Source of the DNA: Ignavibacteriota bacterium
GTDB taxonomy: Bacteria; Bacteroidota; Ignavibacteria; UBA10030
Assembly (NCBI GenBank): GCA_963727825.1
Contig: CAVSHO010000012.1
Span: 1-64,000 of the forward strand
DNA: 64,000 nucleotides
Reading direction: 5' to 3'
The notes beneath the pieces were generated by a model, which did not search any database, had not been told where the DNA came from, and saw nothing but the letters and a program-made list of their open reading frames with translations. This document shows positions 12,674 through 61,905 of this stretch, in pieces (position 1 is the first letter of the stretch; each line of letters begins with the position of its first letter). The position numbers and the translations under genes were made by a program.

Positions 12674-12796
12674 CTGTCAGGACGCCCGCCCAACCCGCCA
12701 CAAAGCATGGCGGGTAAACAAGACGGCAGGTAAGTAAATCCTGACAGCACACGGAATTTATTCCTTTCACCGTCAGGACGTAAGTCCTGACGGCAC
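12674..12796. repeat. GTGCyGTCAGGAC-family REP pair with nested hairpin insertions
   Basis: CCGTCAGGACGTAAGTCCTGACGGCAC at 12770-12796. A second copy is split by GCCCGCC...CCCGCCAcaaagcaTGGCGGG+TAAA...GGCAGG. Confidence 0.7.
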
Positions 12797-15800: not shown

Positions 15801-16637
15801 CACTCTGCGATGCTTTTCAGTGTATGAGCAAGGAGGACGACCTGTTTCTCAACCTGCTTGCGCTCGGTGATGTCGTGAACAATTGAATGCAGCACATTCT
15901 TGTTTCCGATTGAAATATTGCTGCTGAATACTTCAACGTCCCGTATCGAACCATCTTTCCGCCTGTGTTTGAATTCGAATTGAACTCTTTTTTGAGACTT
16001 TACTTTCTGCATTTCCTTATTAACTTCTTCGGGTGGGAGAACATTGATCTGATAGATTTTCATCCTTTTCAATTCTTCACAGTTCCAACCATAATAGACT
16101 GCCGCGGAATTATTGGCATCAATAATCTCTCCAGATTCCGGATCGATCAGTAATTTCACTGCGGCATGATCTTCGAATATTTTACGGAACTTTTCTTCGC
16201 TTTCGTGCAGTGCTTCTTCAGACTGCTGTCGTGATTTCTTTTCCTTTGATTCATCAAGCGCGCGTTTAATTGCTAAAGGAAGCCTAATTAATCGATCCTT
16301 TAAGACATAATCGATAGCTCCCTGCTTGATAAGTTCGATGGCAGTTTCTTCGCCGATTGATCCGGAAACGCATATAAAGGGAACCTCCGGGCAGATATTC
16401 TTTGCTAATTTCAATGCTCCGTGCGCATCAAATCCGGGTAATTTGAAATCACTTAAAATGAGATCATATGTATGATTGTGAAGTAAAGATGTAAATTCCT
16501 TTTTCTTCTCAGGTACAATCCATACTGAGATCGTATCCTGCATCTAAAAGTAGTTCACGTATGATCTCGATGTCTCGAGGCGAGTCTTCAAGATATAAGA
16601 CTTTCAAAGCTATCTTATCTATGGTCTTCTTTTTCAT
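12803..16637 (-). CDS. Hybrid sensor histidine kinase (REC, six PAS, HisKA, HATPase, REC), frameshift near 16512
   Basis: The upstream frame [22 protein letters not shown]...SMDC joins ORF 12803..16543. AHDFNN and GTGLGL motifs are present. Confidence 0.9.
13266..13286 (-). mobile_element. 21-bp in-frame palindromic micro-insertion CCTG+CCTGCCGGCAAGGCAGG
   Basis: The paralog reads GGCAA|GGGAACAAC (GKGTT). Here the protein reads [12 protein letters not shown]. Confidence 0.85.
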
Positions 16638-39678: not shown

Positions 39679-39911
39679 TTACTAGCAAATGCCCAAAGTG
39701 TTTTTCCATAATGCTATCTTTTACATTGACTTCCTCCCCTTTTAGGGGAGGACTTCTCCACTCCTTTGAGGAGAGGGAAATATTTCTCTATTTACTAAAA
39801 AGATCTAGAGAAGTTATAATTAATAAAATAAGTAAGCTCGACTGTATTTCCAAGAGACACATTATTTTTTCGTAATAATATGCTTTTAGTGATTCTATTT
39901 TCAGACATAAT

Positions 39912-39951
39912 AAAAAAGAAGCCCGTAAGCGTAATACTCACGGGCTTCTTT
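39912..39951 (-). terminator. Rho-independent terminator after the tRNA-Leu 3' duplicate
   Basis: AAGAAGCCCGT...ACGGGCTTCTT followed by a T-run on the minus strand. Confidence 0.8.
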
Positions 39952-39952
39952 G

Positions 39953-40055
39953 TGCCGAAGGGGGGACTCGAACCCCCACTCGATTTGAGTCGAACCTCGT
40001 AGAACGAGGCAAGCTGTATTTTGAGTCCAGTTTATCCCGACAAAGTCGGGACGCG
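39953..40055 (-). pseudogene. 3' duplicate of tRNA-Leu interrupted by two hairpin insertions
   Basis: Matches 40303-40365 except one substitution and inserts at 39995-40013 and 40031-40051. Confidence 0.9.
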
Positions 40056-40298
40056 CCTTTTCGTCAGTAACGAGTTCAATTCATAATGACCCGGTCCACT
40101 TTTAAGAAATTTCTCTCTTTTTCTTGCTTGCTGTCGATTAGGACATTCTTCTGTAAGAAGTAGTTGGAACGGTCGTCTATTTTTTGTCGATGGTACTTTT
40201 CCCTGATTGTGACGTATTAACCGCTTCTCTACATCTTCCGTCATTCCGATGTAAAGATTATTATCTTTTAGAGATTTTAATACGTACACAAAAAACAT
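40032..40298 (-). CDS. Small stand-alone GIY-YIG nuclease (UPF0213/SLX1-like)
   Basis: FVYVLKS...LYIGMT...KRLIRHN.G...STK.RRP...AR.RE.FLKSG. Confidence 0.92.
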   Translation of the reverse strand: MFFVYVLKSLKDNNLYIGMTEDVEKRLIRHNQGKVPSTKNRRPFQLLLTEECPNRQQARKREKFLKSGPGHYELNSLLTKRRVPTLSG

Positions 40299-40302
40299 TC
40301 AG

Positions 40303-40388
40303 TGCCGAAGGGGGGACTCGAACCCCCACTCGATTTGAGTCGAACTGGATTTTGAGTCCAGCGCGTCTACCAGTTCCGCCACTTCGGC
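40303..40388 (-). tRNA. tRNA-Leu(CAA)
   Basis: GCCGAAG acceptor, CTGGA-CT CAA AA-TCCAG anticodon arm, long variable arm, GGTTCGAGTCC T-arm. Confidence 0.96.
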
Positions 40389-40624
40389 GCTTCGTTTATT
40401 AAATATATCAAGGAATGACCTGCGAAACAAGTTTTTTTCTTCAACAACTCTCAGAGTGTTTGAAAATTTCAAACTCACTACTTCGATACTAACTCGTCTG
40501 CTCTACATTCTAGCGGGACGAATTATATTCAAAAGAACAGTTGCCAAATGGAACTGTACGGCATCCTGCAATTTATTACTTTGAGCGGTAGAATACTTTG
40601 GAAGTCTTATGTAACGCATTAAAC

Positions 40625-41503
40625 TTAATTTCCCACACCCTCGCTGATAAACTTGCGAACGGAAATCATACTTCCCAGCAATCCAAGGAGGCAGCCAATG
40701 CCTATGATAATGCCGTAGTAATAAGGCTGAACGCGGACAAATTCTGATAGCGAGACGGTCAACCACTGTTCTAAATATTTAAATAGCGTATAAATAATTC
40801 CAGCGGCGATTGCTCCTCCCAGCAGGCCCTGAAGAAATCCTTCCAGTAAAAATGGCGTACGAATAAAGCTTCGCGTTGCACCAATAAGTTTCATTGTCTG
40901 TATAATTTTACGCTTTGCATAAATGGCAAGACGGATAGTGTTAGCTACTAAAATGACAGATGAAATAGTGATAAAGATTCCAACACCAAGCGTAATCCAA
41001 AGAAACAACATCGCCCGCTGATCCAGCATTTCCAACAATTGTTTCCGGTAGATTACATCATCCACGCCTTTGATGGATTTTACCTGACTGGAAATTACTT
41101 CAGCATGTTTTGCCGTCTTATAGCCGTCTTTTAAGAATATTTTGAGAGACGCCGGCAGCGGGTTGAAATTCAAAACTTTATAAATATCTTCGCCGAACTC
41201 TTCATTAAATATTTTCGCTGCTTCTTCTTTTGAAACGTAGCGAACCTCGCGCACGCCTTCCAGCATTTCTACTTGTCCTTTAACCTCGGTTACCTGATCG
41301 TTGGTGATTTGGTCGTTCAAAAACGCCTCCATTTCTACCTTTTCACGCAGCGATTTGACAAAACCATTTACATTCAAAAATAGAATTGTAAAAAAACTCA
41401 GCAGCAATAACGATACGCAAATAGTAAAAATTGCGGCAAACATCGACAGTTTGGCTCGCTTGAAACCTGAAAATCCCTCTTTTAAAACATATCCTAGTTG
41501 CAT
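40625..41503 (-). CDS. ftsX: Cell division permease FtsX
   Basis: YVSKEEA, NPLPAS, NTIRLAIYA and MKLIGAT..FIRTPF. Confidence 0.93.
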   Translation of the reverse strand: MQLGYVLKEGFSGFKRAKLSMFAAIFTICVSLLLLSFFTILFLNVNGFVKSLREKVEMEAFLNDQITNDQVTEVKGQVEMLEGVREVRYVSKEEAAKIFNEEFGEDIYKVLNFNPLPASLKIFLKDGYKTAKHAEVISSQVKSIKGVDDVIYRKQLLEMLDQRAMLFLWITLGVGIFITISSVILVANTIRLAIYAKRKIIQTMKLIGATRSFIRTPFLLEGFLQGLLGGAIAAGIIYTLFKYLEQWLTVSLSEFVRVQPYYYGIIIGIGCLLGLLGSMISVRKFISEGVGN

Positions 41504-41510
41504 ATTACTC

Positions 41511-42351
41511 TCACTTGCTATGGCGTGAAATAGCGGAATCGTCAAACGGCTGGTAACTCCCCAGCACGCGCACAAAAGAACAAACTTCTTCTAAATGATT
41601 TAATGCCTGACTCAGTGGATCTCGTTTAGGTATCCCTTCCACATCCAAATAGAAGAGATATTCCCACGGTTTGCCGATTATCGGACGTGATTCAATTTTC
41701 AGTAAATTAATATCCCGCAATGCAAATACAGCAAGCGCTTTGAAGAGTGCGCCGGGAATATCTTTTGCTGCAAATACGATTGAAGTCTTGACTTTGCCGA
41801 GCGGTTGAACCTGTTTTCGCGAGAGTGCAATGAAGCGTGTGAAATTGCGATGGTCACTCTCAACGTTTCGTTCCAGAATATGCAGTCCGTACGCACGCGC
41901 TGCTTGTTCGCTGGCGATAGCCGCTGCATCATTGCGTTTTCGTTCCTGGATAAACCGAGCAGCCGCTGCCGTATCATGCACGGCTTCCACTTTTACATCT
42001 TTTTAGTGTGCTGAGAAAGTTCTCGCACTGGCCAATCGCTTGCAATTGCGAGTAGATCGTGCGAATGCTATTCCGTTTTGCTTCGGGCAAAGCCATCAAA
42101 TGCAGTTCGATGCGGAGTTTTACTTCACCGATTATAAAAAGCTTATGCTTCAGAAGAAGATCGTACACCTGATGGATACTGCCGAATAGCGAATTCTCAA
42201 TCGGCACAATGCCAAAGCTTGCGGGATGATGTTCGGCATCTGAAAAGACATCGGAAAAAGCAGGCAATGGTTTTAATATAGCATGGGCCCCAAAGAATTT
42301 TCGCGCTGCTTGTTCACTAAACGCACCTGGTTCACCCTGATAAGCGATCAT
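41511..42351 (-). CDS. pheA: Prephenate dehydratase (frameshift near 41990)
   Basis: IAYQGEPGAFSE, VPIENS, NFTRF, KIESRP and VLGSY across two ORFs. Confidence 0.92.
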
Positions 42352-42369
42352 AAGTAATTTCCCATTAAG

Positions 42370-42879
42370 TTAAAAATTTGATTCATCATCCCATCGGACA
42401 ATCTTCCATGGATCCTGTGCTTGATTGCGTACCAATGTAAGATTAACATATCCGTCCACATAAACAATATCACTCGGATTGAACGTAACCGTCAAATTAA
42501 ACCCCCGCTTAATCATTTCTTGTGTATTGGTAGAATCAACGGAAGACGATGCTATATCATTCCATAAAATATCCAATCGCTGAGCATTCTGGAATAGTCC
42601 GTATGTTGTCCGCATCTCCTCATCTCTTCCCCAAGTTACATCGACACCCATATCATAATCGTGATAAACAAATGTAAAGTTCCCGTCAAGAAGTTGTCCA
42701 TAAATTGATGTATCGCGAACAGTGTAAGCATATTTGAAGTTTTGAAATATACCGTCGGCCGTTTTTTGGTCGCTCAGGAGCGATGATGTTTCTCCAGAAG
42801 AATCATCCAACCCAGGTGCGAATGGATTACAGGCAGCCAGTACCAAGATGAATGGTATGGAAATAAAGATGAATTTCAT
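42370..42879 (-). CDS. Hypothetical lipoprotein (NTF2-like fold possible)
   Basis: LAAC lipobox, CNPFAP and C-terminal WKIVRWDDES. Confidence 0.75.
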   Translation of the reverse strand: MKFIFISIPFILVLAACNPFAPGLDDSSGETSSLLSDQKTADGIFQNFKYAYTVRDTSIYGQLLDGNFTFVYHDYDMGVDVTWGRDEEMRTTYGLFQNAQRLDILWNDIASSSVDSTNTQEMIKRGFNLTVTFNPSDIVYVDGYVNLTLVRNQAQDPWKIVRWDDESNF

Positions 42880-42882
42880 TAG

Positions 42883-43466
42883 TCACCATTGTGAATAAGC
42901 AATCCCCTTTAAGTCGCTCCATGTTGAGTCGGATACATTTACAGCAACATCCACCCACTGATTGATATACCATAATCCCGATACTTGCGTAAGTGTATAT
43001 TGCACTTGTCCGTTAGAATTTTTTAACCGACGCCTGCTTCCACTGGAAGAGTCAAATGATAAGCAGTTTCCACCTGACTTATATTATTGTTATATGTCGG
43101 CGTATAAGGATCAAACACTAAAACCACTCTAGAATTATTTGAGAAGTGATTAATAATTTTTTCGAAGCATTGCTGTTCTTGCGCTTTATTCCAAGCCGTC
43201 CAATCAATACCGCCGTATTTGTTTTTAGCGTCAGTTGATGGGATAAAACTAAAAGAAGCATCCGAAAATGATTTAGCATAGTTGACAGAATTTCCGTCCT
43301 GGAACGCGTTCACCATATTCTGCAATACTATTGATACATCTGTCGGAGGAACGTAATTTGAACTCTGTTGCGACGGCTCCTCCGGTGTTCTAGTCTTAAA
43401 CAAATCACAGGATATCAAACTGAAACACAACATTATATTTATAGCCATAACAAAACTGCGCAGCAT
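42883..43466 (-). CDS. Hypothetical lipoprotein, paralog-like to its neighbour (frameshift near 43022)
   Basis: LISC lipobox and FKTRTPEEP. It continues in another frame as GLWYINQWVD...TWSDLKG. Confidence 0.7.
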
Positions 43467-43476
43467 CAAAGTTCCT

Positions 43477-44076
43477 TTATACAACGATGCGGCCTTCAAA
43501 CGCTCTGGAAAGAGTCGCTTCGTCTGCAAATTCAAGATCAGAGCCGACCGGTAAACCACGTGCAATACGTGTTACCTTTATTCCCAGCGGTTTTAACAAC
43601 CGGGAAAGATAGAGTGTTGTTGTTTCTCCTTCCACATTTGGGTTAAGCGCCAAGATAATTTCTTCGATTGTTGAAGTAGAAATACGCTGCAACAATTCCT
43701 TAATCTTCAACTCGTCGGGACCAATGCCGTCTAACGGTGAAAGTGCTCCCCCTAAGACATGGTACAAACCTTTAAACTCGTTCGTCTTTTCAATAGCAAG
43801 GACATCGTGCGGCTCTTCGACAACACAGATTGAAGACCGTTCGCGTTTAGTATTAGAACAAATTGCACATGGATCGGTTTCAGTGATATTTGAGCAGATA
43901 GTACAATACCGTACTTTATCTTTCACATTAACCAATGCTTTTGCCATCGTAACGACTTCATCGCGCGACATTTTCAAAACATAGAGGGCAAGACGCTGCG
44001 CAGTCTTCCTTCCTATACCCGGAAGTTGTGCAAATTGTTCAGCGAGTTGTTCAATTGATTCAGCAGTATAAAACAT
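43477..44076 (-). CDS. recR: Recombination mediator RecR
   Basis: [10 protein letters not shown]4 zinc finger, YHVLGG and NPNVEGE. Confidence 0.97.
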
Positions 44077-44134
44077 TATCAGATCTCATAGGTGCAAGGA
44101 TTATCAAGAATTAAAATTTTAAGAGTTTTTATGA

Positions 44135-44479
44135 TTAAAAACCGGGAAGCTTCATACCGGGAATATTGGGTATCATTCCGCCGGTCGCTTTTTGCATTTC
44201 TTCCGCTGCCATTGCAGTTGATCGCTCCAATGCTTGATTTACAGCCGCTAGAACTAAATCCTCCAGCATCTCTTTCTCATCCGGATTTATTACTTCTTTC
44301 TCAATTTCAATTTTGATGATATGCTGTTTGCCATTGGCATTTACCCTCACCATACCTCCACCGGCTTCGGCTGCAACAGTTTTGCTTTCAAGTTCCGCCT
44401 GAACTTGATCCATCTTCTCCTGCATTTTCTGCACTTGCTTCATCATTTGCTGCATATTCGGCATGCCGCCTTTGAACAT
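44135..44479 (-). CDS. ybaB: YbaB/EbfC nucleoid-associated protein
   Basis: AGGGMVRV and [12 protein letters not shown]. Adjacent to recR. Confidence 0.95.
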
Positions 44480-44651
44480 TTTTTTGTCTCCTATATTTTT
44501 ATTCTTAAATAATTTTCTGCGTCAATATACCCCGAAATGGAAGGAAAGTCAACGCACGAAATTTTAAACGCCTATATTGACTTTCGGAAAAAAATGGAGA
44601 TATATTAAGGTAAAGCTCATCAGTATTGATGAGTTTTTTAAATGATGTGAT

Positions 44652-44897
44652 TCCGCGATAGCTCAATGGTAGAGCATGCGGTCCGATCATCGCACAAGCG
44701 ATGATCGAGATCTCGTCCCGATAAAATCGGGACGGACTGTTAACCAGACTTTGAAATAGGGAATTATTTTTCATTCCGCGATAGCTCAATGGTAGAGCAT
44801 GCGGTCCGATCATCGCACAAGCGATGATCGAGATCTCGTCCCGATAAAATCGGGACGGACTGTTAACCAGACTTTGAAATAGGGAATTATTTTTCAT
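44652..44897 (+). repeat. Two identical 123-bp tandem units: tRNA-Asn 5' half with a 55-bp cruciform insert, plus a 29-bp spacer
   Basis: Units start at 44652 and 44775. The intact tRNA starts one period later at 44898. Confidence 0.92.
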
Positions 44898-44972
44898 TCC
44901 GCGATAGCTCAATGGTAGAGCATGCGGCTGTTAACCGCAGGGTTGTAGGTTCGAGTCCTACTCGCGGAGCCA
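44898..44972 (+). tRNA. tRNA-Asn(GTT)
   Basis: TCCGCGA acceptor, TGCGG-CT GTT AA-CCGCA anticodon arm, GGTTCGAGTCC T-arm and encoded CCA. Confidence 0.96.
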
Positions 44973-45034
44973 ATTCATTTTGCCGTACCGCAGACGGGAT
45001 TTGTTGTTTATAAGAGACTAACTCAAAACTACCT

Positions 45035-45273
45035 TTGTTTTATTTATATATACTCATCTGAATTTAATGGAATGTTTTAAGTTGGTATTAGTCCGAAAAT
45101 CTTAGAACAGCGGCTTGAATTTACCATCTTTCAATAGGTAATGGATTCACAGCACGATATCGTCCCTGGAAATTAGTATACACGAAAGGATATCCAACGC
45201 GACAGCTGGCTCGAGTGCTGAAAAGAAAATCAAAACAAGGAAAAGCAGATCGATGATTTAACATTTCATCTAA
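45035..45273 (+). pseudogene. Decayed GIY-YIG nuclease gene
   Basis: Fragments LFYLYIL, VGIS, LEQRLE, GNGFTARYRPWKLVYTKGYPTRQLA and AEKKIKTRKSRSMI, with stops and frameshifts. Confidence 0.8.
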
Positions 45274-45320
45274 TGATGTTTGGGATTATTCGGATTATTA
45301 ACCATTCCGTCGATTTCTGA

Positions 45321-45403
45321 CTGTAGGGTTGTAGGTTCTCCCGCTCCATCATAATGGAACGGGACTATTAACCCCGACGTTTTATGTCGGGGCTCTCGGA
45401 GCA
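45321..45403 (+). pseudogene. Degenerate 3' duplicate of tRNA-Asn with two hairpin insertions
   Basis: ctgtAGGGTTGTAGGTTC[hairpin]CTA[TTAA+hairpin]CTCtCGGAGC, compared with ccgcAGGGTTGTAGGTTCgagtcCTACTCGCGGAGC in the intact gene. Confidence 0.8.
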
Positions 45404-45413
45404 CTTATAAATG

Positions 45414-45444
45414 AAAGGTCGAAATAGATTTTCGACCTTTTTTT
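45414..45444. terminator. Rho-independent terminator
   Basis: AAAGGTCGAAA...TTTCGACCTTTTTTT. Confidence 0.8.
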
Positions 45445-45482
45445 CTTACACCCATCTCAGAAAGAAAAATATTTTCTTATTT

Positions 45483-46679
45483 CTATAATCTTCGAATTCT
45501 AAACACAACTGCCAAATAAAAAGCGGTAATAATAGTTCCGATTGCTGACACACTAAACGTCACCGCTGGCGAAAACGCATACCACAACCATCCGGCTAAA
45601 CTGCTCGCCAGTAAAGTGCAAATGCTTTGCATTCCAGTGTAGAATCCGATGGCAGTCGCCACATCATTTTTAGAGACAATATTAGAAATCCATGCTTTAG
45701 AAATTCCTTCAGTGCTCGCAGCATACATTCCGTAGAGAAAAAACAATGCAAGTAATACAGGCATAGATGCAGCAAAAATGATCCCGCCATAAACAATCGC
45801 AAATAAAACCAATCCTGCGAAGAATATCAATTTTAATCCAATTTTGTCTCCCAACGCTCCCAGCGGATACGACATCAACGCATAGACAAGATTATAGAAA
45901 ATATAGATTCCAATCACCTGTTGATCTGTCGCCCTTTGGTGCCGCATCATCAAAAGAAGCAGCACATCCGAACTATTCATCAATGCAAAAAAGAGAAGAC
46001 CAACCACAAGTAGACGAAATTCGCGGGGAGCAATTTTCCAATATTTTAAGAAAGAGAAAAATCCGGATCTAGCATTATATGCAGACATTTTTTCAATATG
46101 TACATTTCTATCTTCCTTTATAAGAAAGGTTATCGCAATAGCAATTATCCCCGGGATAAAAGCAATCAGAAATAATGTTCTATACTGCGCCGGGTAAAAT
46201 ATAAGAAAAATTAAAGCCGCCAATGGACCAAGTGCGGCTCCGATCGTGTCGAATGCCCGATGGAAACCGAATACTCTTCCCTTAAACTCTGGAGTTGTTT
46301 CAGCGGAGAGCATTGCATCGCGTGCACCAGTGCGAATCCCTTTTCCTAACCTGTCTAGCGTACGTGCACCGAATATCCAAAGTGGAAACGTAAATACTGC
46401 CATCATCGGTTTGGAAATTGCACTTAGGGAATATCCCATTTGAACAAATATCTTTCGTTTACCAATGTTATCTGAAAGATTTCCAAAATATCCTTTACTC
46501 AAACCGGCGGTAGCTTCTGCAATTCCTTCTAACAAACCAATAAGCGCAACAGAAAACCCGATATTCGTGAGATACATTGGCATAATCGGATAAAGCATCT
46601 CGCTTGCTACATCAGTAAAAAGACTCACGATAGATAGAACTAGGATTGTACGTGTGATAATTCTCATTGTTCTCCTCAC
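45483..46679 (-). CDS. MFS transporter
   Basis: DVASEM, GNLSDNIGKRK, DRLGKGIRT and GRVFGFHR. Confidence 0.9.
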   Translation of the reverse strand: MRRTMRIITRTILVLSIVSLFTDVASEMLYPIMPMYLTNIGFSVALIGLLEGIAEATAGLSKGYFGNLSDNIGKRKIFVQMGYSLSAISKPMMAVFTFPLWIFGARTLDRLGKGIRTGARDAMLSAETTPEFKGRVFGFHRAFDTIGAALGPLAALIFLIFYPAQYRTLFLIAFIPGIIAIAITFLIKEDRNVHIEKMSAYNARSGFFSFLKYWKIAPREFRLLVVGLLFFALMNSSDVLLLLMMRHQRATDQQVIGIYIFYNLVYALMSYPLGALGDKIGLKLIFFAGLVLFAIVYGGIIFAASMPVLLALFFLYGMYAASTEGISKAWISNIVSKNDVATAIGFYTGMQSICTLLASSLAGWLWYAFSPAVTFSVSAIGTIITAFYLAVVFRIRRL

Positions 46680-46827
46680 GCTCTTTCTGATGATAATATA
46701 CTAAGTGATTTTTATGAGCGCAATTATCTGCTTTTTTAACAGAACATTTCAGTGGATTCACAGAAAAAGTTTCTTATATTTTTCGGAAATAAATTTTCAA
46801 CTTTTTGGTGTTGAGAGTAGGAGCAGT

Positions 46828-48147
46828 ATGGACTTCATATCAATCCTCCGAGGTCTCTTTGGCCTCATAGTTATTACAGCCCTCGCCTATATTTTTTCCG
46901 ACAATAAGAAAAAAATTAATTGGAAATTGGTCACCAGCGGCATCATAATGCAATTTGCCTTTGCATTTATCGTCGTGAAAACCGATATCGGCCGGGAGAT
47001 TTTCAGTTATTGCAGTAAATTCTTCGTATGGCTCTTCAGTTTTGCAAGTGACGGGGCACAATTCGTTTTCGGTGGATTGGCGAAAAACGTGGGCACTGAT
47101 GGAAGCCTTGGCTCTTTCTTTGCCTTTCAGGTTCTTCCAACTATTATTTTCTTTGTATGTTTTATGAGCATCCTCTACTATCTCGGCATTATGCAGCGTA
47201 TCGTTCAAGGCATTGCGTGGATAATGCTGCGTTTGTTGGGAACAAGTGGGGCAGAATCTCTTGATGTCGCGGCAAATACATTCATCGGTCAAACAGAAGC
47301 TCCGGTCGTTATCCGGCCTTACCTTGCTACACTGACCAATTCCGAACTCTTCACTATTATGACAAGCGGTATGGCACACATCGCTGGTGGGGTACTTGCC
47401 GCATATATGCAGATGCTCGGCTTGGCATATGCGAAAGCTAATGGCTTGCCAATTGACGCATCGCAGGTATATTTTGCCGGTCATCTCCTCGCAGCAAGCA
47501 TTATGGCAGCCCCTGCAACTATGGTGGTTGCAAAAATGTTAATGCCGGAGACCAGTGAGCCCCTCACGATGGGAACCGTGCGCGTCAAGATCGAACGGAC
47601 TCATTCCAACATTATCGAAGCGGCTGCAGGCGGCGCAGGCGATGGCGTGCGCCTTGCAATTAATGTTGCCGGAATGCTTATCGCATTCATTGCGATAATT
47701 GCGTTGATAAATGCATTATTGGGTTACGTCGGTGATATTTCTGGATTAAATGCCGTCTGCCAAACACAGTTCCATCAAAAATTATCGCTCGAACTTCTTT
47801 TCGGACTTATTTTCCAGTTCATTGCATTCACTATCGGTGTCCCCTGGCACGACTCACTCAATGTTGGCAGTTTGATGGGAATTAAATTGGTGGTCAATGA
47901 ATTTGTCGCTTATTTGCGAATGGCCGATATGATCTCAGCAGGTATGCTTTCGCCAAAAGCGATTGTGATTTCTACTTACGCTCTTTGCGGGTTCGCGAAT
48001 TTTTCATCTATTGCTATTCAAATTGGCGGTTTAAGTCCGCTTGCTGAAAATCGTCGCAGCGATATCGCAAAATTAGGATTGAAAGCGGTACTCGGCGGTA
48101 CAATCGCAACATGGATGACGGCATCGATAGCCGGGCTTCTTTGCTAA
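46828..48147 (+). CDS. nupC: Concentrative nucleoside transporter (NupC/CNT family)
   Basis: FAFQVLPTIIFF, FIGQTEAP, NEFVAY and CGFANFSS. Confidence 0.93.
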   Translation: MDFISILRGLFGLIVITALAYIFSDNKKKINWKLVTSGIIMQFAFAFIVVKTDIGREIFSYCSKFFVWLFSFASDGAQFVFGGLAKNVGTDGSLGSFFAFQVLPTIIFFVCFMSILYYLGIMQRIVQGIAWIMLRLLGTSGAESLDVAANTFIGQTEAPVVIRPYLATLTNSELFTIMTSGMAHIAGGVLAAYMQMLGLAYAKANGLPIDASQVYFAGHLLAASIMAAPATMVVAKMLMPETSEPLTMGTVRVKIERTHSNIIEAAAGGAGDGVRLAINVAGMLIAFIAIIALINALLGYVGDISGLNAVCQTQFHQKLSLELLFGLIFQFIAFTIGVPWHDSLNVGSLMGIKLVVNEFVAYLRMADMISAGMLSPKAIVISTYALCGFANFSSIAIQIGGLSPLAENRRSDIAKLGLKAVLGGTIATWMTASIAGLLC

Positions 48148-48204
48148 TTGATGTTACGCACTAATAATTTTTTATTAAAGGATTTATAGTTCTTTATATG
48201 ATTG

Positions 48205-48290
48205 TCCACCTCCCTATCCCGACCCGATTTTGCATCGTGTGGGGATTTCCCCTCCCCGCCTGCTGCGGGCAGGCTCAAACGAGGAGGAGC
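48205..48290. repeat. Purine/pyrimidine-tract hairpin repeat with nested hairpin insertions
   Basis: TCCCGACCCGAT...GGGA and CCCGCCTGCTGCGGGCAGG lie inside CCACCTCCC...CTC AAAC GAGGAGG. Confidence 0.5.
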
Positions 48291-48422
48291 GTATTAAAGT
48301 AATTCCACGAAGTGAAATTACAATAAATGCGCAGATTTTTCTTTAAAGGGGTGGTTTACTTTGTTTTATTATATTCCATGTTTATCAGCATAAAAGATGG
48401 CTTTGCGTAACATTAGTTGCTA

Positions 48423-48558
48423 GAGACCTCTGAAAAACATTATTTGTCATTTCGATCGCAGGGAGAAATCTTTCTTTTTATTAAGATTTCTCAGTCTCCC
48501 GATCGACGTTGTCGTTCGGGATTCTTCGAAATGACAATCCCGAATATTGCAGAAGTTT
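48423..48558. repeat. Nested element: imperfect outer inverted repeat, TGTCATTTCGA REP doublet and TCCCGA...TCGGGA hairpin
   Basis: GAGACCTCTGAAAAA...TATTGCAGAAGTTTC, TGTCATTTCGA..GAGAAATCT...AGATTTCTC..TCGAAATGACA, with an insert near 48497-48521. Confidence 0.7.
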
Positions 48559-48597
48559 CTGCAAATTAATTTTCATGGTCTAAATCAAGGATCGTTC

Positions 48598-50202
48598 ATG
48601 AACGACACTCAGAAGAATTACAAATGGTTTGTTCTCGAAGACTGGAATGGGTTCTTCGGACTCATATTCGACAATTTGACTGTCCTTTCCTTCCTTGCAG
48701 GTATTCTTATTTTCGTTTTTAAATATCCGGCAGATGTTGTATATACGAGAATGTTTCCCGGAACTGCATTCGGTGTATTGTTCGGCGATCTTATCTATAC
48801 TTGGATGGCGTTCCGGTTAGCGAAGAAAACCGGTAATACAAAAGTAACCGCAATGCCGCTCGGTCTCGATACACCATCAACAATTGGGATTGCGCTCGTG
48901 GTACTTGGTCCCGCCTTTATCGGCTTGAAGGCAGAAGGAATTTCTGAGCGTGACGCGGCTATGATGACCTGGTATATCGGTATGGCAACCATGGTGTTTA
49001 TGGGTATCATCAAATTTGTATTCTCTTTTTTAGGTCGATGGGTGCAGAAGATTGTTCCGCAAGCAGGATTGCTTGGTTCCCTCGCGGGTATCGGGCTTGC
49101 GTTGATCGGAATGACTCCCTTGATCGACATTTTCGGCATGCCGCTTGTTGGACTTATTGCGCTTGGAATGATTTTTTACACATTGATTGCTGGAATTAAA
49201 TTGCCGTTTAAAATTCCGGGAGTATTCGCATCGGTTGCAGTCGGAACTGTACTCTATTATCTCCTCGGTCCCTCCGGAATTGTTGGTGGAACATACGCCG
49301 GGCCTCCTCCTGCTGAACTCCATTTTGGCCTACCCTTACCTACGTTAGATTTTATTAAAGGACTTGCTCCTGCACTCAAGTATCTTCCCATTGCTATTCC
49401 CTTCGGTATATTAACAGTCGTCGGCGGAATCAACGTAACGGAAAGTGCACGGGTTGCTGGTGACGATTACAGTACACGGAATATCCTTCTAACAGAAGCA
49501 ATTGCTACTCTCATTGCTGGAATTTGCGGCGGTGTCGCTCAGTCAACGCCTTATATCGGACAACCAGCTTACAAACATATGGGTTCACGGGCGGGATATA
49601 CTTTTCTCACCGGTGTTTTTATTGGATTGGGCGGAATTTTTGGATATATATCGTTTATTGTTGAACTTATCCCGCGTGCTGTATTAGCGCCGATTCTCAT
49701 CTTCGTTGCATTTGATATTATCGCGCAATCATTTCAAGCGTGCCCGGCACGGCATGCACCGGCGATCGCCTTTGCATTCTTCCCGACAATCGCGCGTTTG
49801 TTGGCAATCAAATTAGGAAATACAGACGCAGTGCTTCCGGAAACCTTCAATAAACTAATGGCAGTCCCGGGAAAAGCATTACCTGAATTGCTTATCATCG
49901 TTGCGCTTGGCAATGGATTCATCGTCACGGGAATGTTATGGGGCGCATTCCTCGCCGAACTCATCGATCGTCGGTTGCGGGCATCGGCGGCATACTTGAT
50001 CGCCCTGGCAGCGTTAACGTTTTTCGGAATAATCCATTCTGCATTACCTGATGGAATGATGTATTTGCCATGGAATCTTGATGGATTAGCCAGACAGGTT
50101 CCATATCAATTCACAGTGGCGTATTTAGCATTGGCGGCTTTCTTCTTTGCTATGTCTTTTACAAAGGAAAGCAGAGAACCGATCACTGGAATAGGACACT
50201 AA
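48598..50202 (+). CDS. NCS2-like (xanthine/uracil/AzgA-type) permease
   Basis: Many TM segments, TAMPLGLDTP, ESARVAGDDY and TPYIGQPAYKHMG. Confidence 0.75.
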   Translation: MNDTQKNYKWFVLEDWNGFFGLIFDNLTVLSFLAGILIFVFKYPADVVYTRMFPGTAFGVLFGDLIYTWMAFRLAKKTGNTKVTAMPLGLDTPSTIGIALVVLGPAFIGLKAEGISERDAAMMTWYIGMATMVFMGIIKFVFSFLGRWVQKIVPQAGLLGSLAGIGLALIGMTPLIDIFGMPLVGLIALGMIFYTLIAGIKLPFKIPGVFASVAVGTVLYYLLGPSGIVGGTYAGPPPAELHFGLPLPTLDFIKGLAPALKYLPIAIPFGILTVVGGINVTESARVAGDDYSTRNILLTEAIATLIAGICGGVAQSTPYIGQPAYKHMGSRAGYTFLTGVFIGLGGIFGYISFIVELIPRAVLAPILIFVAFDIIAQSFQACPARHAPAIAFAFFPTIARLLAIKLGNTDAVLPETFNKLMAVPGKALPELLIIVALGNGFIVTGMLWGAFLAELIDRRLRASAAYLIALAALTFFGIIHSALPDGMMYLPWNLDGLARQVPYQFTVAYLALAAFFFAMSFTKESREPITGIGH

Positions 50203-50212
50203 AGGATTTTTT

Positions 50213-50977
50213 ATGTTTCGTTCTGCGTTCGTTTGGATTACAACATGCATACTTATTCTCCTTTGGCTTTTCTTATTAGCAATAAGTCGATTGTTTGATC
50301 ATGATCCGGTGCACTATCGGACTGGCTTTCTATTCCGAAAAATCGGGAATGCACTAACCTGGATCAATCCTGCATGGCGGCTTCACATTACCGGTGAAAT
50401 TATTTCCAATCCGCGACTGCCGTACGTCGTTGTCTGTAATCATCAATCGATGGCTGATATTCCATTGATCAGCAACTTGCCATGGGAAATGAAATGGATG
50501 GCGAAAACAGAAATATTCAAACTACCAATCCTCGGCTGGATGCTGCGGCTTGCAGGCGATATTAGTGTTGATCGAAAAAATCCACGCAGCGGCGCTCAAG
50601 CGCTCATCAAGGCACAGCATATTCTTGAACAAAAATGTTCCGTTATGATTTTTCCGGAAGGAACGCGCACTCTTGATGGACGAGTGCGGCAATTCACAGA
50701 CGGAGCATTTCATCTTGCTATCAAAGCTAAAGTCCCTATACTTCCTCTCGTCATTGAAGGTTCGCGCGATTGCATCCCGAAGAACAGTTGGAAATTCGGC
50801 AAGCCATCGGATATCTTTCTGAAAGTGCTGCCGCCAATCGAAACATCTTCATTGACAATACAGGACGTTCCTTTGCTTCGTGACAATGTCCGTACAGCAA
50901 TTATGAAACAAATTGCAGAATGGCGCTCGGTTCCGATTGAAGCAGTGGATGGGATGATGCCACTTTCGACAAAATAG
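50213..50977 (+). CDS. plsC: 1-acyl-sn-glycerol-3-phosphate acyltransferase
   Basis: NHQSMADI and IFPEGTR. Confidence 0.9.
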   Translation: MFRSAFVWITTCILILLWLFLLAISRLFDHDPVHYRTGFLFRKIGNALTWINPAWRLHITGEIISNPRLPYVVVCNHQSMADIPLISNLPWEMKWMAKTEIFKLPILGWMLRLAGDISVDRKNPRSGAQALIKAQHILEQKCSVMIFPEGTRTLDGRVRQFTDGAFHLAIKAKVPILPLVIEGSRDCIPKNSWKFGKPSDIFLKVLPPIETSSLTIQDVPLLRDNVRTAIMKQIAEWRSVPIEAVDGMMPLSTK

Positions 50978-51179
50978 GAAACAGCAATTTTAAAAGTCGA
51001 GAGGAAAAACGAGAAGTCAAATCTCAGATTGCTTCATCGTTAAATCTACCAAAGGGTGTGAGCATTGCAATCAGGCGGGTTAAAGCATAAAGGCAATATT
51101 TTAAGGAAGGACAATCGAGAGATTGCCCTTCTTCATTTTATACAGGAATACAAAAATAGACATAGTATTATATACTCAC

Positions 51180-52070
51180 CTACTTGGTAATATCCAAAAG
51201 CTCCTTAGGGACATGAAAACCTAATTCTTTCGCTCTTTTGAAATTTGAATGCGCTTCGCTCTTTTTGTTAAGTCGCGCGTATGCGAGCCCCCTGTCATAG
51301 TAGGCGAGTGCAAAGTCCGGGTTCAAAACGATTGCCTTGGTGAAGTCAGCAATGGCTCCTTGATAGTCCTTAAGCGTATACCTTGTCAAGCCCCTGCCAT
51401 TGTAGGCTTCTGAATCATTCGGGTTCAAACCGATTGCCTTGGAGAAGTCAGCAATGGCTCCTTGATAGTCTTGAAGCATATACTTTGCTTTCCCCCTGCC
51501 GTTGTAGGAAATTTGTGCATCCTCAGGGTTCAAACCGATTGCCTTGGAGAAGTCGGAAATGGCTTCCTGATAGTCTTGAAGTGTATGCTTTGCGTATCCC
51601 CTGTAATAATAGACATCTGCATAATCTGGTTTCAGCTTGATTGCCTCATTGTAGTCGGTAATAGCTCCCTGACAATCTTCAAGATTAAACTTTGCGAACC
51701 CCCTGTAATAATAGGCATCTACAAAGTCCGGTTTCAGCTTGATTATTTCATTGAAGTCAACAATTGCGCCTTGATGGTCTTCTAGATTCCGCTTTGCAAT
51801 CCCTCTGAATAGATAGGCTTCCGCAAAATCCGGTTTCAGTTTGATTGCCTCGTTGAAGTCAGCAATAGCTTCTTGCCATTCGTTAAGTTCACTCTTTGCG
51901 TTTCCTCTGTGTAGGAAGGCTTCTGCATAATCTGGTTTCAGTTTGATTGCCTCATTGATGTCAGCAATGGCTCCCCGATAGTCTTGATGTATACACTTTT
52001 CGAGCCCCCTAAGATAGTAGGCTTTAGCATCATCCAGTTCCATACCGATTGACTTTTTGAACAGACTCAT
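51180..52070 (-). CDS. Tetratricopeptide repeat protein (eight 34-aa repeats)
   Basis: Repeated AY..RG.AK..L.DYQGAIADF..AI.L.P, with 102-bp DNA periodicity. Confidence 0.93.
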   Translation of the reverse strand: MSLFKKSIGMELDDAKAYYLRGLEKCIHQDYRGAIADINEAIKLKPDYAEAFLHRGNAKSELNEWQEAIADFNEAIKLKPDFAEAYLFRGIAKRNLEDHQGAIVDFNEIIKLKPDFVDAYYYRGFAKFNLEDCQGAITDYNEAIKLKPDYADVYYYRGYAKHTLQDYQEAISDFSKAIGLNPEDAQISYNGRGKAKYMLQDYQGAIADFSKAIGLNPNDSEAYNGRGLTRYTLKDYQGAIADFTKAIVLNPDFALAYYDRGLAYARLNKKSEAHSNFKRAKELGFHVPKELLDITK

Positions 52071-52320
52071 CTTATGCTCCTCGTACGTTTATACAATTAT
52101 ATTTAATAATATAACAACAAAATATGCTCTTTGACAATGACCTTCCATTTATTTAAGTTTAAATGACATTCACCTATACCAGAGAGGTTTAGTATATTTT
52201 GAAAGTTATCCACTTGATACTCAGTTCGTTCACAGCAAAACAGAATGTTTTGGAAAAATATAGATAGCTACATTTATAGATGGGTATGGAAAGGTTATTA
52301 AATTATAAAAGGAGTTTTTC

Positions 52321-52908
52321 TTGCTCTCTTGGGAATTCCAACAATTTTATAATAATTGGCTTCATAAAGCTGATTCATACAATACTGATGATTTAACAGA
52401 CTGTTTTGATAAGTTTTTTACCCTATTCGTTCTGTACAATCGTCTTTATGCCGAAACCACGTTTGAACTTGCTCGTGTCGGCAAGATTAATTTAAGTAAT
52501 CACAAATATTTCCCTGATTCAAAAGCGGCAACTTGTTATATAAAACAATTTCTTGGCGCAAATGCCATACTTGATTGTATAAATTCAAATCCATCTTCTC
52601 ATTGCGCCTTATCAAATATTATTTCTCTTATTGAAGCAGAAAGATTTCACATACTTTTGCATCTAATTACTGGTGAAGGACAACGAAAAAAGGACATTGA
52701 ACTTCTTGAATCACTTCGTTCAACAAATCCAGATTTAAAAGCAGGCGCCATTTTACAATTAATATATTCAATAAGATGTAATTTATTTCATGGACACAAA
52801 TCATTTGAAGGAGTGCAAAAAGAGATTGTTGTTCCTGTTTTAGTTATCCTTCATAATATTGTTGTATGTCTCTATAATAAACTTAACGCCGCCCTAACCC
52901 ACGGCTGA
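52321..52908 (+). CDS. HEPN-like domain protein
   Basis: N-terminal DKFFTLFVLYNRLY helix and C-terminal IYSIRCNLFHGHK (R-x4-H). AT-rich. Confidence 0.65.
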   Translation: MLSWEFQQFYNNWLHKADSYNTDDLTDCFDKFFTLFVLYNRLYAETTFELARVGKINLSNHKYFPDSKAATCYIKQFLGANAILDCINSNPSSHCALSNIISLIEAERFHILLHLITGEGQRKKDIELLESLRSTNPDLKAGAILQLIYSIRCNLFHGHKSFEGVQKEIVVPVLVILHNIVVCLYNKLNAALTHG

Positions 52909-53118
52909 AGCTGACGAAATGAGGTTGGTTTTTTTGTTCCATTATATCGTTATTCTTTATTTTGCCTTCACCATTTTGATTTGATTTCTTAAGCTGGTGA
53001 TGATGTCTTGCTGAACACGGCATCTATCCATCAAGTGCCGTATCTGATTTTCTTTCGATTCTATCTCGGCATCTAATCTTATTTCCTCACCATTTTTTTT
53101 CTGAATGTATGATGCGTC

Positions 53119-53158
53119 AAAAAAAAGAGCTGAATCCATTAAAGGAATCAACTCTTTT
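53119..53158 (-). terminator. Terminator after the tRNA-Ile2 3' duplicate
   Basis: AAAAGAG.TGA.TCC...GGAATCA.CTCTTTT with a T-run on the minus strand. Confidence 0.65.
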
Positions 53159-53165
53159 CGATTTG

Positions 53166-53241
53166 TGGGCCCTGCTGGGCTCTCCGCCAAAGGCGGATGC
53201 GCCTTCCACCAAAAAATGGCGGACAAGCTGGCGCAGAACCA
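53166..53241 (-). pseudogene. 3'-end duplicate of tRNA-Ile2 with nested hairpin insertions in the T-loop
   Basis: TGGGCCCTGCTGGGCTC[53183-53235]GAACCA matches the 3' 23 nt of the intact gene. Confidence 0.85.
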
Positions 53242-53255
53242 CGGCTTATTTTTTG

Positions 53256-53329
53256 TGGGCCCTGCTGGGCTCGAACCAGCGACCCGCAGATTATGAGTCT
53301 GCTGCTCTAACCAACTGAGCTAAGGGCCC
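53256..53329 (-). tRNA. tRNA with CAT anticodon, probably tRNA-Ile2 (lysidine)
   Basis: GGGCCCT acceptor, GCAGA-CT CAT AA-TCTGC anticodon arm and GGTTCGAGCCC T-arm. It lacks initiator features. Confidence 0.92.
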
Positions 53330-53660
53330 AATGTTAACTTAAATTAAAATCTCTTATCTATTTTTGAAGATCTACGACCCGCAGATTATGAGTCTGCTGC
53401 TCCCCGCCCGACTGCACGATGCAATCGTGCGGGCAGGTAACCAACTGTTTACCCGCCGTGCCTTACCTTTTGGCGGGAGCTAAGGGCCCGAATGTTAACT
53501 CAAAATTAACAATCTCTTATCAATTTTTGAAGATTTAGGACCCGCAGATTATGAGTCTAGATGCTCCCCGCCCGACTGCACGGAATGCATACTCGTGCTG
53601 GGCAGTTCCCAACTGATTTACCCGTCCGTGCCTTATTTTATGCCGCGAGAGCTCGACGAA
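53330..53660 (-). repeat. Two upstream tandem units: spacer plus tRNA-Ile2 5' portion with two hairpin inserts (second unit degenerate)
   Basis: Copies at 53375-53489 and about 53539-53660. Inserts at 53403-53437 and 53448-53477. The spacer AATGTTAACT...TTTTTGAAGAT is repeated. Confidence 0.85.
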
Positions 53661-61691: not shown

Positions 61692-61770
61692 ATAATTTTA
61701 GATCTAAAGGATTCCCTTACCATAGTTATTTATTCAAAAATTGTAACTGCTAACGCAAATTTAATTAAAT

Positions 61771-61905
61771 AAAATAAACATCCTTGCAGTCCCGCATAGC
61801 GGGACGAGGTATTTTGTCACTCCCGCGTACGCGGGAGTCTAACGTTCTGGATTCCTCCCGACTTTGTCGGGACGGGAATGACGCCGCAAGCGGCGGGGTA
61901 TTAAA
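61771..61905. repeat. Composite palindromic element, same outer family as 3039-3173 (inverted), with a different inner REP doublet and two hairpin inserts
   Basis: ATAAACATCC...GAGGTATT[TGTCACTCCCGCGTACGCGGGAGTC...CTGGATTCC..CGGGAATGA]CGCCGCAAGCGGCGGGGTATTAAA. Confidence 0.78.

Follow-up and report, generated by a model that had tools for sequence, protein, structure and literature searches.

Palindromic micro-modules in partial tRNA gene copies beside mini GIY-YIG genes point to an undescribed kind of miniature mobile DNA

Introduction

Repetitive extragenic palindromes (REPs) are palindromes that end, on one side, in a conserved unpaired tetranucleotide, GTAG or CGTC (PMC3733652). Here we describe GC-rich hairpins which split partial copies of tRNA genes, close to genes for a mini GIY-YIG nuclease, in a stretch of 64,000 nucleotides from an Ignavibacteriota bacterium (assembly GCA_963727825.1, contig CAVSHO010000012.1, positions 1 to 64,000), called the window throughout. 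As such tiny hairpins occur at matching spots in distant bacteria, they suggest a form of miniature mobile DNA that has not been described before. The modules are like those of the REP/REPIN system and its REP-associated tyrosine transposases (RAYTs; REPINs being REP doublets that form hairpins) in that they are short palindromes with a tetranucleotide at one foot, often in inverted pairs, dispersed and sometimes placed in genes, and both are thought to be miniature non-autonomous mobile DNA (PMC3733652; PMC3116915). However, the tags here are TTTA and CTTG rather than GTAG or CGTC and belong to a sub-family only, copy numbers are 1-20 and not hundreds (with up to 2 mismatches allowed, each module has 1-19 sites), and units may be as small as 11-21 nt. 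REPs are near-identical units which are mostly extragenic, whereas some of the modules lie in open reading frames (ORFs) and tRNA copies, and while paired hairpins are inverted as in REPINs their stems are unlike and no single long hairpin is formed. The RAYT comparison also differs in that the Y1 transposase genes here are flanked by other repeats and the best co-occurring gene is that of the GIY-YIG nuclease. Insertion without target duplication is shared with IS200/IS605, but the fixed tetra- or pentanucleotide target 5' of the insert is absent here.

Mitochondrial GC clusters, double-hairpin elements and the hairpin-forming elements of sponges are similar in being GC-rich palindromes with single or double hairpins in an AT-richer genome; they enter RNA genes and ORFs and stay there, diversify fast, merge and nest, and they share genomes with free-standing endonuclease ORFs (PMC4478555; PMC2800124). 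These elements are organellar, in contrast to the present ones, which occur in free-living bacteria of several phyla, are tied to tRNA copies and are placed precisely in cloverleaf loops; a target duplication is reported for yeast GC clusters whereas none was seen here. SegB of phage T4 is likewise encoded by a GIY-YIG gene which lies among tRNA genes and promotes its own inheritance (PMC2330249), although the elements described here come with partial tRNA duplications and hairpin modules. Free-standing homing endonucleases offer a further parallel in their presence or absence at one site among close relatives (here 4 occupied, 3 empty) and in intact GIY-YIG catalytic motifs, the difference being that the present proteins are 80-110 aa long, consist of the catalytic domain only, with no separate DNA-binding domain to read a long target, and are chromosomal in many phyla. 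Their nearest solved sequence relatives are UPF0213 and SLX1, and cuts in loops and at the ends of helices are what one would expect of a nuclease that recognises structure. SLX1 differs in acting together with SLX4 in eukaryotic repair, and the bacterial mini proteins are no more than candidate structure-specific nucleases.

Cyanobacterial small dispersed repeats (21-27 nt) and the Rickettsia palindromic elements are very small and nest in repeats or in frame in genes. They differ from the present modules in sequence and taxa, and we know of no link between them and tRNA copies or GIY-YIG genes. Integrase islands in tRNA genes show the same order of parts, that is, an intact tRNA, then the element, then a direct repeat of the tRNA 3' part. 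Their crossovers have sub-locations at the anticodon and T loops. The loci described here differ from such islands in lacking an integrase, in having a single 250-bp gene as the 'island', and in the presence of upstream 5' copies and tandem arrays. GIY-YIG genes are listed among transfers out of Patescibacteria (PMC12455944), and a full-text literature search, supplements aside, turned up no account of mini GIY-YIG genes that are linked to tRNA genes and accompanied by tRNA copies with hairpins.

Results

Hairpin inserts in the tRNA copies of the window

The original prediction listed six hairpins, each with a tetranucleotide at its foot, as inserts in duplicates of tRNA genes, and held that intact tRNA genes are free of them. 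All six were found in place when the sequence was read. The three intact tRNAs of the window were called by ARAGORN and used as empty-site references for alignment of the flanks, which revealed that each hairpin splits a partial copy of a neighbouring tRNA gene (tRNA-Leu, tRNA-Asn or tRNA-Met) and that none lies in an intact gene. The features at the tRNA-Leu locus are as follows.

40302-40388, minus strand: intact tRNA-Leu(CAA), empty-site reference (ARAGORN)
40032-40298, minus strand: 88-aa mini GIY-YIG nuclease gene (PF01541, E 3e-15)
39952-40056, minus strand: partial tRNA-Leu copy, about positions 22-87, from alignment to the intact tRNA
40031-40051: Leu hairpin 1 with TTTA, preceded in tRNA sense by GCGCG
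40014-40030, minus strand: anticodon stem-loop of the Leu copy, one mismatch
39995-40013, minus strand: Leu hairpin 2 with CTTG
39952-39995, minus strand: exact 44-nt repeat of tRNA-Leu positions 44-87

The GIY-YIG ORF begins 3 nt past the end of tRNA-Leu. Followed in the direction of the tRNA, the Leu copy is made up of GCGCG, TCCCGAC-ttt-GTCGGGA+TAAA, the anticodon stem-loop, CTTG+CCTCGT-tct-ACGAGG and positions 44-87, and the stop codon TAA of the GIY-YIG ORF falls within the TAAA tag of hairpin 1.

Copies on both sides of the intact gene, together with a decayed nuclease gene, are found at the tRNA-Asn locus.

44652-44745 and 44775-44868, plus strand: two tandem 5' copies of tRNA-Asn (positions 1-39), 123-bp period
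44682-44735 and 44805-44858: identical 54-nt double hairpins in these copies, between positions 30 and 31
44898-44972, plus strand: intact tRNA-Asn(GTT) (ARAGORN)
about 45036-45272, plus strand: decayed GIY-YIG pseudogene after tRNA-Asn, pieces in three frames
45318-45405, plus strand: 3' copy of tRNA-Asn

The layout of the 54-nt double hairpins is TCCG-hairpin-CGAGATCTCG-hairpin-CGGA, and in the 3' copy two hairpins (45339-45365; 45368-45392 including TTAA) replace 8 nt of the T loop after GGTTC. The best piece of the pseudogene matched a seven-paralogue profile with E 3.9e-6 (hmmsearch), and the same profile detected no GIY-YIG remnant beside tRNA-Met, where the following features are present.

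53165-53242, minus strand: 3' copy of tRNA-Met
53255-53329, minus strand: intact tRNA-Met(CAT) (ARAGORN)
53375-53489, minus strand: 5' copy 1 of tRNA-Met (positions 1-50)
53539-53650, minus strand: 5' copy 2 of tRNA-Met, older and more diverged, with diverged forms of the two inserts of copy 1

The T loop of the 3' Met copy contains, after GGTTC, a double hairpin made up of TGCGCC..GGCGCA (53198-53235) and TCCGCC-TTT-GGCGGA (53183-53197), and the CTTG+hairpin at 53205-53227 is nested in the loop of the former, outer hairpin. In 5' copy 1 a hairpin+TAAA is placed at 13|14 (53448-53477) and a long palindrome, CCTGCCCG..CGGGCGGG, at 22|23 (53403-53437); the CCTG which had been taken for a free tag of the latter turned out to be part of the palindrome's stem. 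Both 54-nt double hairpins, the hairpins at 45339-45365 and 53183-53197 and the outer hairpin at 53198-53235 are inserts beyond the six listed before.

The copies contain exact matches of 44 nt and 30 nt to the adjacent tRNA, and the inserts are backed by data from outside this assembly, as the Leu hairpins recur in 4 sister species, each assembled independently, and contigs from 4 public runs contain them too; they are not assembly artefacts. A 151-nt contig from one independent public run equals 39997-40147 with zero differences, and contigs from three more span 39978-40029/40041 with 3-5 differences; an RNA-library contig matches 39978-40041 with 5 differences, which is not proof of transcription, and the runs contain at most 0.30 of sampled words from 39900-40420, stretches without cover being uninformative. 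Folding of the version in sister species G004, compared with shuffles, gave z = -6.4.

Insertion sites and structural context

A total of 35 distinct clean insert events, 13 in the genome of the window (G000) and 22 in other loci, were scored on the ARAGORN cloverleaf. Loops or helix ends accounted for 34/35 clean sites, compared with 62.6% of positions expected, and one site lay inside a helix strand, in agreement with the preference for structured DNA proposed in the original prediction. By place, clean inserts were found in the T loop (13), the D loop (9), the D-loop edge (9) and the anticodon loop (5). The two Leu inserts, which are located at both feet of the anticodon stem, were left out of this scoring because of a mismatch. 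A common target motif was not found among the left flanks, which vary (GGTTC, GGATA, GCGG, CCGAG, GTTCCC) and share structural context alone.

The stems are unrelated to the flanking tRNA sequence, and palindromic (P-nucleotide-like) additions at hairpin-capped breaks were ruled out on this ground. tRNA introns or split tRNAs were also ruled out, given the intact genes alongside and the truncation of most copies.

Occupied and empty sites in sister species

Within the genus the tRNA-Leu site is occupied in 4 species, each with the tRNA, the GIY-YIG gene and a copy bearing the same two hairpins, and it is empty in 3 sister species, where the tRNA runs directly into a terminator. The 3' tRNA piece of the Leu copy follows each genome's own tRNA. 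The Leu element of G004, otherwise 94% identical, contains three extra inserts. One is nested within the loop of hairpin 1, another (TTTA+TCCCGT-tct-ACGGGA) lies at the junction of variable arm and T stem, and the third is a 30-nt double hairpin past GGTTC of the T loop. Recurrent insertion is real, with inserts gained stepwise in G004 and nested in one another. No target duplication accompanies them: the three extra G004 inserts and a 21-nt insert at 13266, described below, show only 1-2 ambiguous bases, as had been claimed, and microhomologies of 1-2 nt (TC and GA) were observed at several T-loop junctions. Copies of tRNA-Met within 900 nt were absent in 11/11 relatives.

Modules outside tRNA copies and the tetranucleotide tag

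The modules are not confined to tRNA duplicates, a point which the original prediction had missed. They are also present within repeats of other kinds, namely in the loops of GTAG-type hairpins, of GTCATTCC..GGAATC hairpins, of a ~120-nt multi-hairpin repeat and of a ~200-nt repeat, as well as directly upstream of start codons and in frame in ORFs, with the cleanest example in the window.

13266-13286: 21-nt near-perfect palindrome copy CCTGCCTTGCCGGCAGGCAGG, in frame (7 codons) in the histidine-kinase ORF 12803-16543 (minus strand)

Alignment revealed that this insert is missing from a paralogue (window 8362-8451) and from three orthologues. The suggestion that the modules are among the smallest mobile units is defensible because a 21-nt module has entered an ORF for which four empty comparators exist.

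Two further hairpin modules appear to be in frame, in a NuoL-like ORF (L083, G000:C7:104745-104776) and in the C-terminal tail of a secreted protein (L085, G000:C11:430761-430786), the identity of both ORFs having been judged by eye.

At up to 2 mismatches TCCCGACAAAGTCGGGA has 13 sites in G000, TCCGCCTTTGGCGGA has 19 and the 20-nt palindrome described below has 9, while 5/6 of the originally named hairpins are single-site. Among 780 GC-rich hairpins genome-wide TTTA was found at 19 (10.3 expected, 1.9x) and CTTG at 12 (7.0 expected, 1.7x), and among the 97 hairpins with a stem starting YCC these numbers were 7 (1.3 expected, 5.5x) and 6 (0.9 expected, 6.9x). As enrichment over all GC-rich hairpins is weak, 'tag plus hairpin' was dropped as a general rule, and TTTA/CTTG is retained as the trait of a sub-family rather than as a general guide.

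Mini GIY-YIG genes and tRNA copies in the genome

G000 is a draft of 3.12 Mb in 14 contigs with 45 tRNA genes, at least 13 of which are accompanied by partial copies that run in the direction of the gene, those of the 5' part lying upstream and those of the 3' part downstream. Of its 14 GIY-YIG matches, 10 fall in tRNA-copy arrays, and weak GIY-YIG or homing-endonuclease matches (E 6e-4 to 4e-3) were obtained from PADLOC and PHROGs. The PF01541 match of the 88-aa protein spans residues 1-67 of 88, without a separate DNA-binding domain, and Y5, Y16, G18, R26, H30, N31 and E62, the catalytic residues, are invariant across 7 paralogues. Profile matches to PDB entries (UPF0213 1zg2, 2.6e-15, and 1ywl, 5.9e-14; SLX1 entries, 2.4e-6 to 5.5e-5) identify the protein, by its sequence, as UPF0213/SLX1-like. 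That it might cut in a structure-specific manner we infer solely from the SLX1 molecule names. The best explanation of the tRNA duplicates is that they were made by tRNA-linked mini GIY-YIG genes, a cause which the original prediction had missed. Copies of tRNA-Met and tRNA-Ala hold inserts though no GIY-YIG gene remains beside them.

Judged by eye in G000 and loci L022-L066, the ends of 5' copies cluster near tRNA positions 24-33 and 46-55 and the starts of 3' copies near 43-47; these clusters correspond to the two sides of the anticodon arm.

Relatives of the nuclease in other phyla

Relatives of the 88-aa protein were collected at 45 loci in named metagenome-assembled genomes (MAGs) and isolates, whose taxa include Bacteroidales, Saprospiraceae, Ignavibacteria, several Patescibacteria, Elusimicrobia, Planctomycetia and Omnitrophota. 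A tRNA lies within 900 nt in 40/45 loci, mostly abutting the ORF and on the same strand in all but one. Partial copies of the neighbouring tRNA were observed in 28/45 loci, and 18 of these 28 have inserts of 10 nt or more. Shared motifs at matching tRNA positions were found in records of Bacteroidales, Saprospiraceae, Buchananbacteria, Peribacteria and Saccharibacteria. A perfect 20-nt palindrome, CCTGCCTGCCGGCAGGCAGG, or variants of it, is placed where D loop and D stem meet in copies of tRNA-Arg, tRNA-Glu and tRNA-Leu; in G000 the palindrome is in a Leu-CAG copy and a long variant is in the Met copy of the window. The T loop of a Buchananbacteria tRNA-Lys copy contains TGCGCC-aga-GGCGCA and a second hairpin; the same double hairpin is found at this T-loop place in the 3' Met copy of the window and in the G004 Leu copy. 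The hairpin+TAAA was found in Peribacteria and Saccharibacteria records. The longest tandem array (L067, G002:C2:364955-369156) comprises 14.1 units of 299 bp which are 99% identical, and every one of them combines a mini GIY-YIG gene with a tRNA-Pro 3' copy that contains the hairpin TGGCGCC-tct-GGCGCCA; the array reaches the contig end, and ARAGORN found no tRNA in it.

The tRNA-Lys copy of the Buchananbacteria MAG (L029, 1-1000) is near full length, contains a 30-nt T-loop double hairpin and is flanked by two GIY-YIG genes. ARAGORN calls it a tRNA, and such copies can therefore contaminate tRNA annotation.

Association with GIY-YIG and Y1 genes

In a phylum sample of 251 genomes the palindrome, counted at up to 1 mismatch, was present in 42 genomes compared with 1 for the reversed control. 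A mini GIY-YIG gene was found in 41/42 palindrome-positive genomes (98%; base rate 171/251, 68%) and Y1_Tnp in 36/42 (86%; base rate 185/251, 74%), counts which come from related, non-independent genomes. In palindrome-positive genomes the enrichment of Y1 is weak compared with that of GIY-YIG. The palindrome often lies 40-65 nt upstream of the GIY-YIG match. Genome G037, with 19 palindromes, has no Y1 match, nor do 3/5 small genomes, of uncertain completeness, with tagged hairpins in tRNA copies. G000 has 9 Y1_Tnp matches, three of them flanked by REP pairs, and the hairpins flanking its Y1 genes are of other families (GGGAGT/GGGAGA and GTAG-type). Taken together, the flanking of Y1 genes by other hairpins, the lack of a common target tetranucleotide, the restriction of the tag to a sub-family and the carriers without a Y1 match speak against the attribution to an HUH/Y1 enzyme made originally, and the evidence favours, without proving, GIY-YIG as the better fitting enzyme.

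Discussion

On balance we think it probable that palindromic micro-modules insert where folded hairpin DNA is unpaired, and that they move together with selfish mini GIY-YIG genes that are linked to tRNA genes. In this two-layered explanation the mini GIY-YIG genes (80-110 aa, catalytic domain only) would live beside tRNA genes in the same direction and behave as selfish, homing-type elements; on entry of such a gene the tRNA would stay intact and a partial direct copy would be left upstream (5' part) or downstream (3' part), sometimes giving rise to tandem arrays. The non-essential copies would then be colonised by short GC-rich palindromic modules, in which each hairpin measures 11-35 nt and which often come as units of two hairpins or as inverted pairs. 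Without duplicating their target, the modules would insert where the folded strand of the tRNA gene is unpaired, namely in the D loop or at its edge, in the anticodon or T loop, at the feet of the anticodon stem, or in the loop of a module that arrived before. Intact tRNAs would be free of inserts because insertion there would be lethal. The modules would be part of a wider family found in other repeats' loops, leaders and, in frame, ORFs, some members of which may travel with GIY-YIG/tRNA elements across phyla.

A structure-directed nick or break in the loop of extruded or single-stranded hairpin DNA might come before the copying in of a module, and the mini GIY-YIG nuclease is the best candidate for the maker of the loop break. 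An insert would split the repeat and probably the nuclease site as well, and would thereby protect the element from re-cutting and recombinational deletion; such protection could explain why the Leu hairpin block has been retained. A bolder version, which we put forward tentatively and regard as possible rather than probable, takes the mini GIY-YIG nuclease for the driving force behind a class of selfish DNA on tRNA genes that spans phyla and has not been described; the nuclease would cut loops or helix ends of folded tRNA-gene DNA, copy itself while regenerating the tRNA and mobilise the palindromic modules of 11-35 nt as its non-coding companions. The modules, including the perfect 20-nt palindrome, would on that account patch cut sites and hop to other hairpin loops and even ORFs.

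A number of findings weigh against the explanation in terms of mobile modules, and many of them fit a competing account in which the hairpins are not independently mobile but are built-in, selected parts of the GIY-YIG/tRNA element, inherited and transferred with it, which either give structure to the leader or trailer of the mRNA or patch, and so spoil, the nuclease site and the repeat, with the look-alikes elsewhere in the genome being unrelated REP-type repeats. We consider this account unlikely. Across genomes that share 48-69% identity in the GIY-YIG gene and 56-61% in the flank, identity of the 61-nt Leu hairpin block is 92-100%. The block shows one compensatory pair change per hairpin (two in total) and no broken pair, and in this it resembles a component under selection more than junk in dead DNA; its conservation implies that the 'dead' copy is kept by selection or by repeated conversion, and the hairpins may have a function in the element instead of merely travelling with it. 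The stop codon within the tag of hairpin 1, the matching motifs and tRNA positions beside GIY-YIG genes in distant phyla and the palindrome 40-65 nt upstream of GIY-YIG point the same way, as do the 54-nt double hairpins, which in G000 occur only near tRNAs (5/5 hairpin-flanked cores), and the single-site nature of 5/6 named hairpins; other copy numbers are also low, and the family likeness of the hairpins is largely architectural. Further points against module mobility are that the cross-phylum loci were ascertained via the GIY-YIG protein, so that its presence there is by construction, that the genomes counted for co-occurrence are not independent, that G000 is a draft with 6.55% estimated contamination, and that nuclease activity, cut site and transposition intermediate are all putative. 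The 10/28 copy-bearing loci with uninterrupted, hairpin-free copies only tell against both accounts. What a built-in role does not readily accommodate are the three further inserts of G004, one of them in the loop of an older hairpin, in an element otherwise 94% identical, the inserts in tRNA-Met and tRNA-Ala copies that have no GIY-YIG gene left, and the occurrence of the same 17-mer and palindrome at sites unrelated to tRNA, including the 21-nt in-frame insert with its empty comparators.

The reading originally proposed, in which REP-like modules are moved in trans by an HUH/Y1 enzyme of RAYT or IS200/IS605 type that recognises hairpin plus tetranucleotide on single-stranded DNA, now seems improbable. 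Tag plus hairpin is the hallmark of REPs (PMC3733652) and inverted pairs recall REPINs (PMC3116915), and the lack of target duplication, the preference for structured DNA, the 9 Y1_Tnp matches of the genome, three of them beside REP pairs, and the presence of Y1 in 36/42 palindrome-positive genomes would all suit it. Yet the hairpins beside those Y1 genes belong to other families, the tags are neither GTAG nor CGTC and mark a sub-family only, no common target motif was seen, genomes without a Y1 match carry the modules, and the enrichment of Y1 is weak beside that of GIY-YIG. Less credible still is the origin of the hairpins de novo, with no mobile element involved, by template-switch repair of nuclease cuts or of replication stalled in tRNA-gene hairpins, after which intra-strand correction would keep the arms complementary. 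It would account for most named hairpins being single-site, for sites in the loops of existing hairpins and for the TC and GA microhomologies at T-loop junctions. Correction from arm to arm, as in quasi-palindrome mutagenesis, can also yield changes that look compensatory. Against it are the stems, which bear no relation to the flanking tRNA sequence, the identical 15-20-nt modules at unrelated sites and in distant phyla, far above reversed-pattern controls, and the 21-nt ORF insert, which is a copy of a dispersed palindrome. Draft status and contamination might also suggest chance resemblance or mis-assembly of a metagenome-derived genome, to which we give practically no credence, as it is already refuted by the inserts in 4 sister-species assemblies and in contigs of 4 public runs, and the exact 44-nt and 30-nt tRNA matches and the folding z-score are also against it.

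If the favoured explanation, that of modules entering folded DNA and travelling with mini GIY-YIG genes, holds, the empty sites would be proof that palindromic units of ~20 nt insert on their own, a size below that usually taken as the REP-type replicative unit. It would tie a very common, functionally blank UPF0213-like family to tRNA genes in Bacteroidota, Patescibacteria, Elusimicrobia and other phyla, and would suggest a testable role for mini GIY-YIG proteins as structure-directed selfish nucleases. It would also account for one class of tRNA pseudogene fragments, as well as for odd tRNA calls in genome annotation, and a natural system with DNA hairpin loops as the insertion target would be at hand. 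Were the bolder engine version true, nuclease and modules would be the smallest known pair of autonomous and non-autonomous mobile elements.

Other repeats and hairpins

The ~120-nt multi-hairpin repeat is seen at ~61750-61880 of the window, where TCCCGAC-aaa-GTCGGGA is nested within a GTCATTCC..GGAATC hairpin, and has at least 6 copies in the genome; the copy at C9 ~49880-50050 has lost one hairpin via fusion of two similar ones. The ~200-nt repeat (L068/L069) carries the palindrome at a fixed place, and its four copies (G000:C11:80460-80730, 81520-81790, 97150-97420 and 100185-100455) differ in the presence of CTTG-tagged and TCCC-ttc-GGGA mini-hairpins; Rfam gave no match for this repeat at E up to 0.01. 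In G037 a stretch of 12.7 kb (L070, G037:C2:1199800-1212500), in which ARAGORN found no tRNA, contains six palindromes, each nested in a GTCATTCCGAGC..GAGG-[palindrome]-AATC repeat.

REP-like hairpins were also observed near the studied loci of the window (39735-39790; 12693-12793), namely CCTCCCC-tttta-GGGGAGG, CTCC..GGAGAGGG, ACCCGCC..GGCGGGT+AAAC and CCGTCAGGAC-gtaa-GTCCTGACGG. The first two of these match many sites in the sister genomes.

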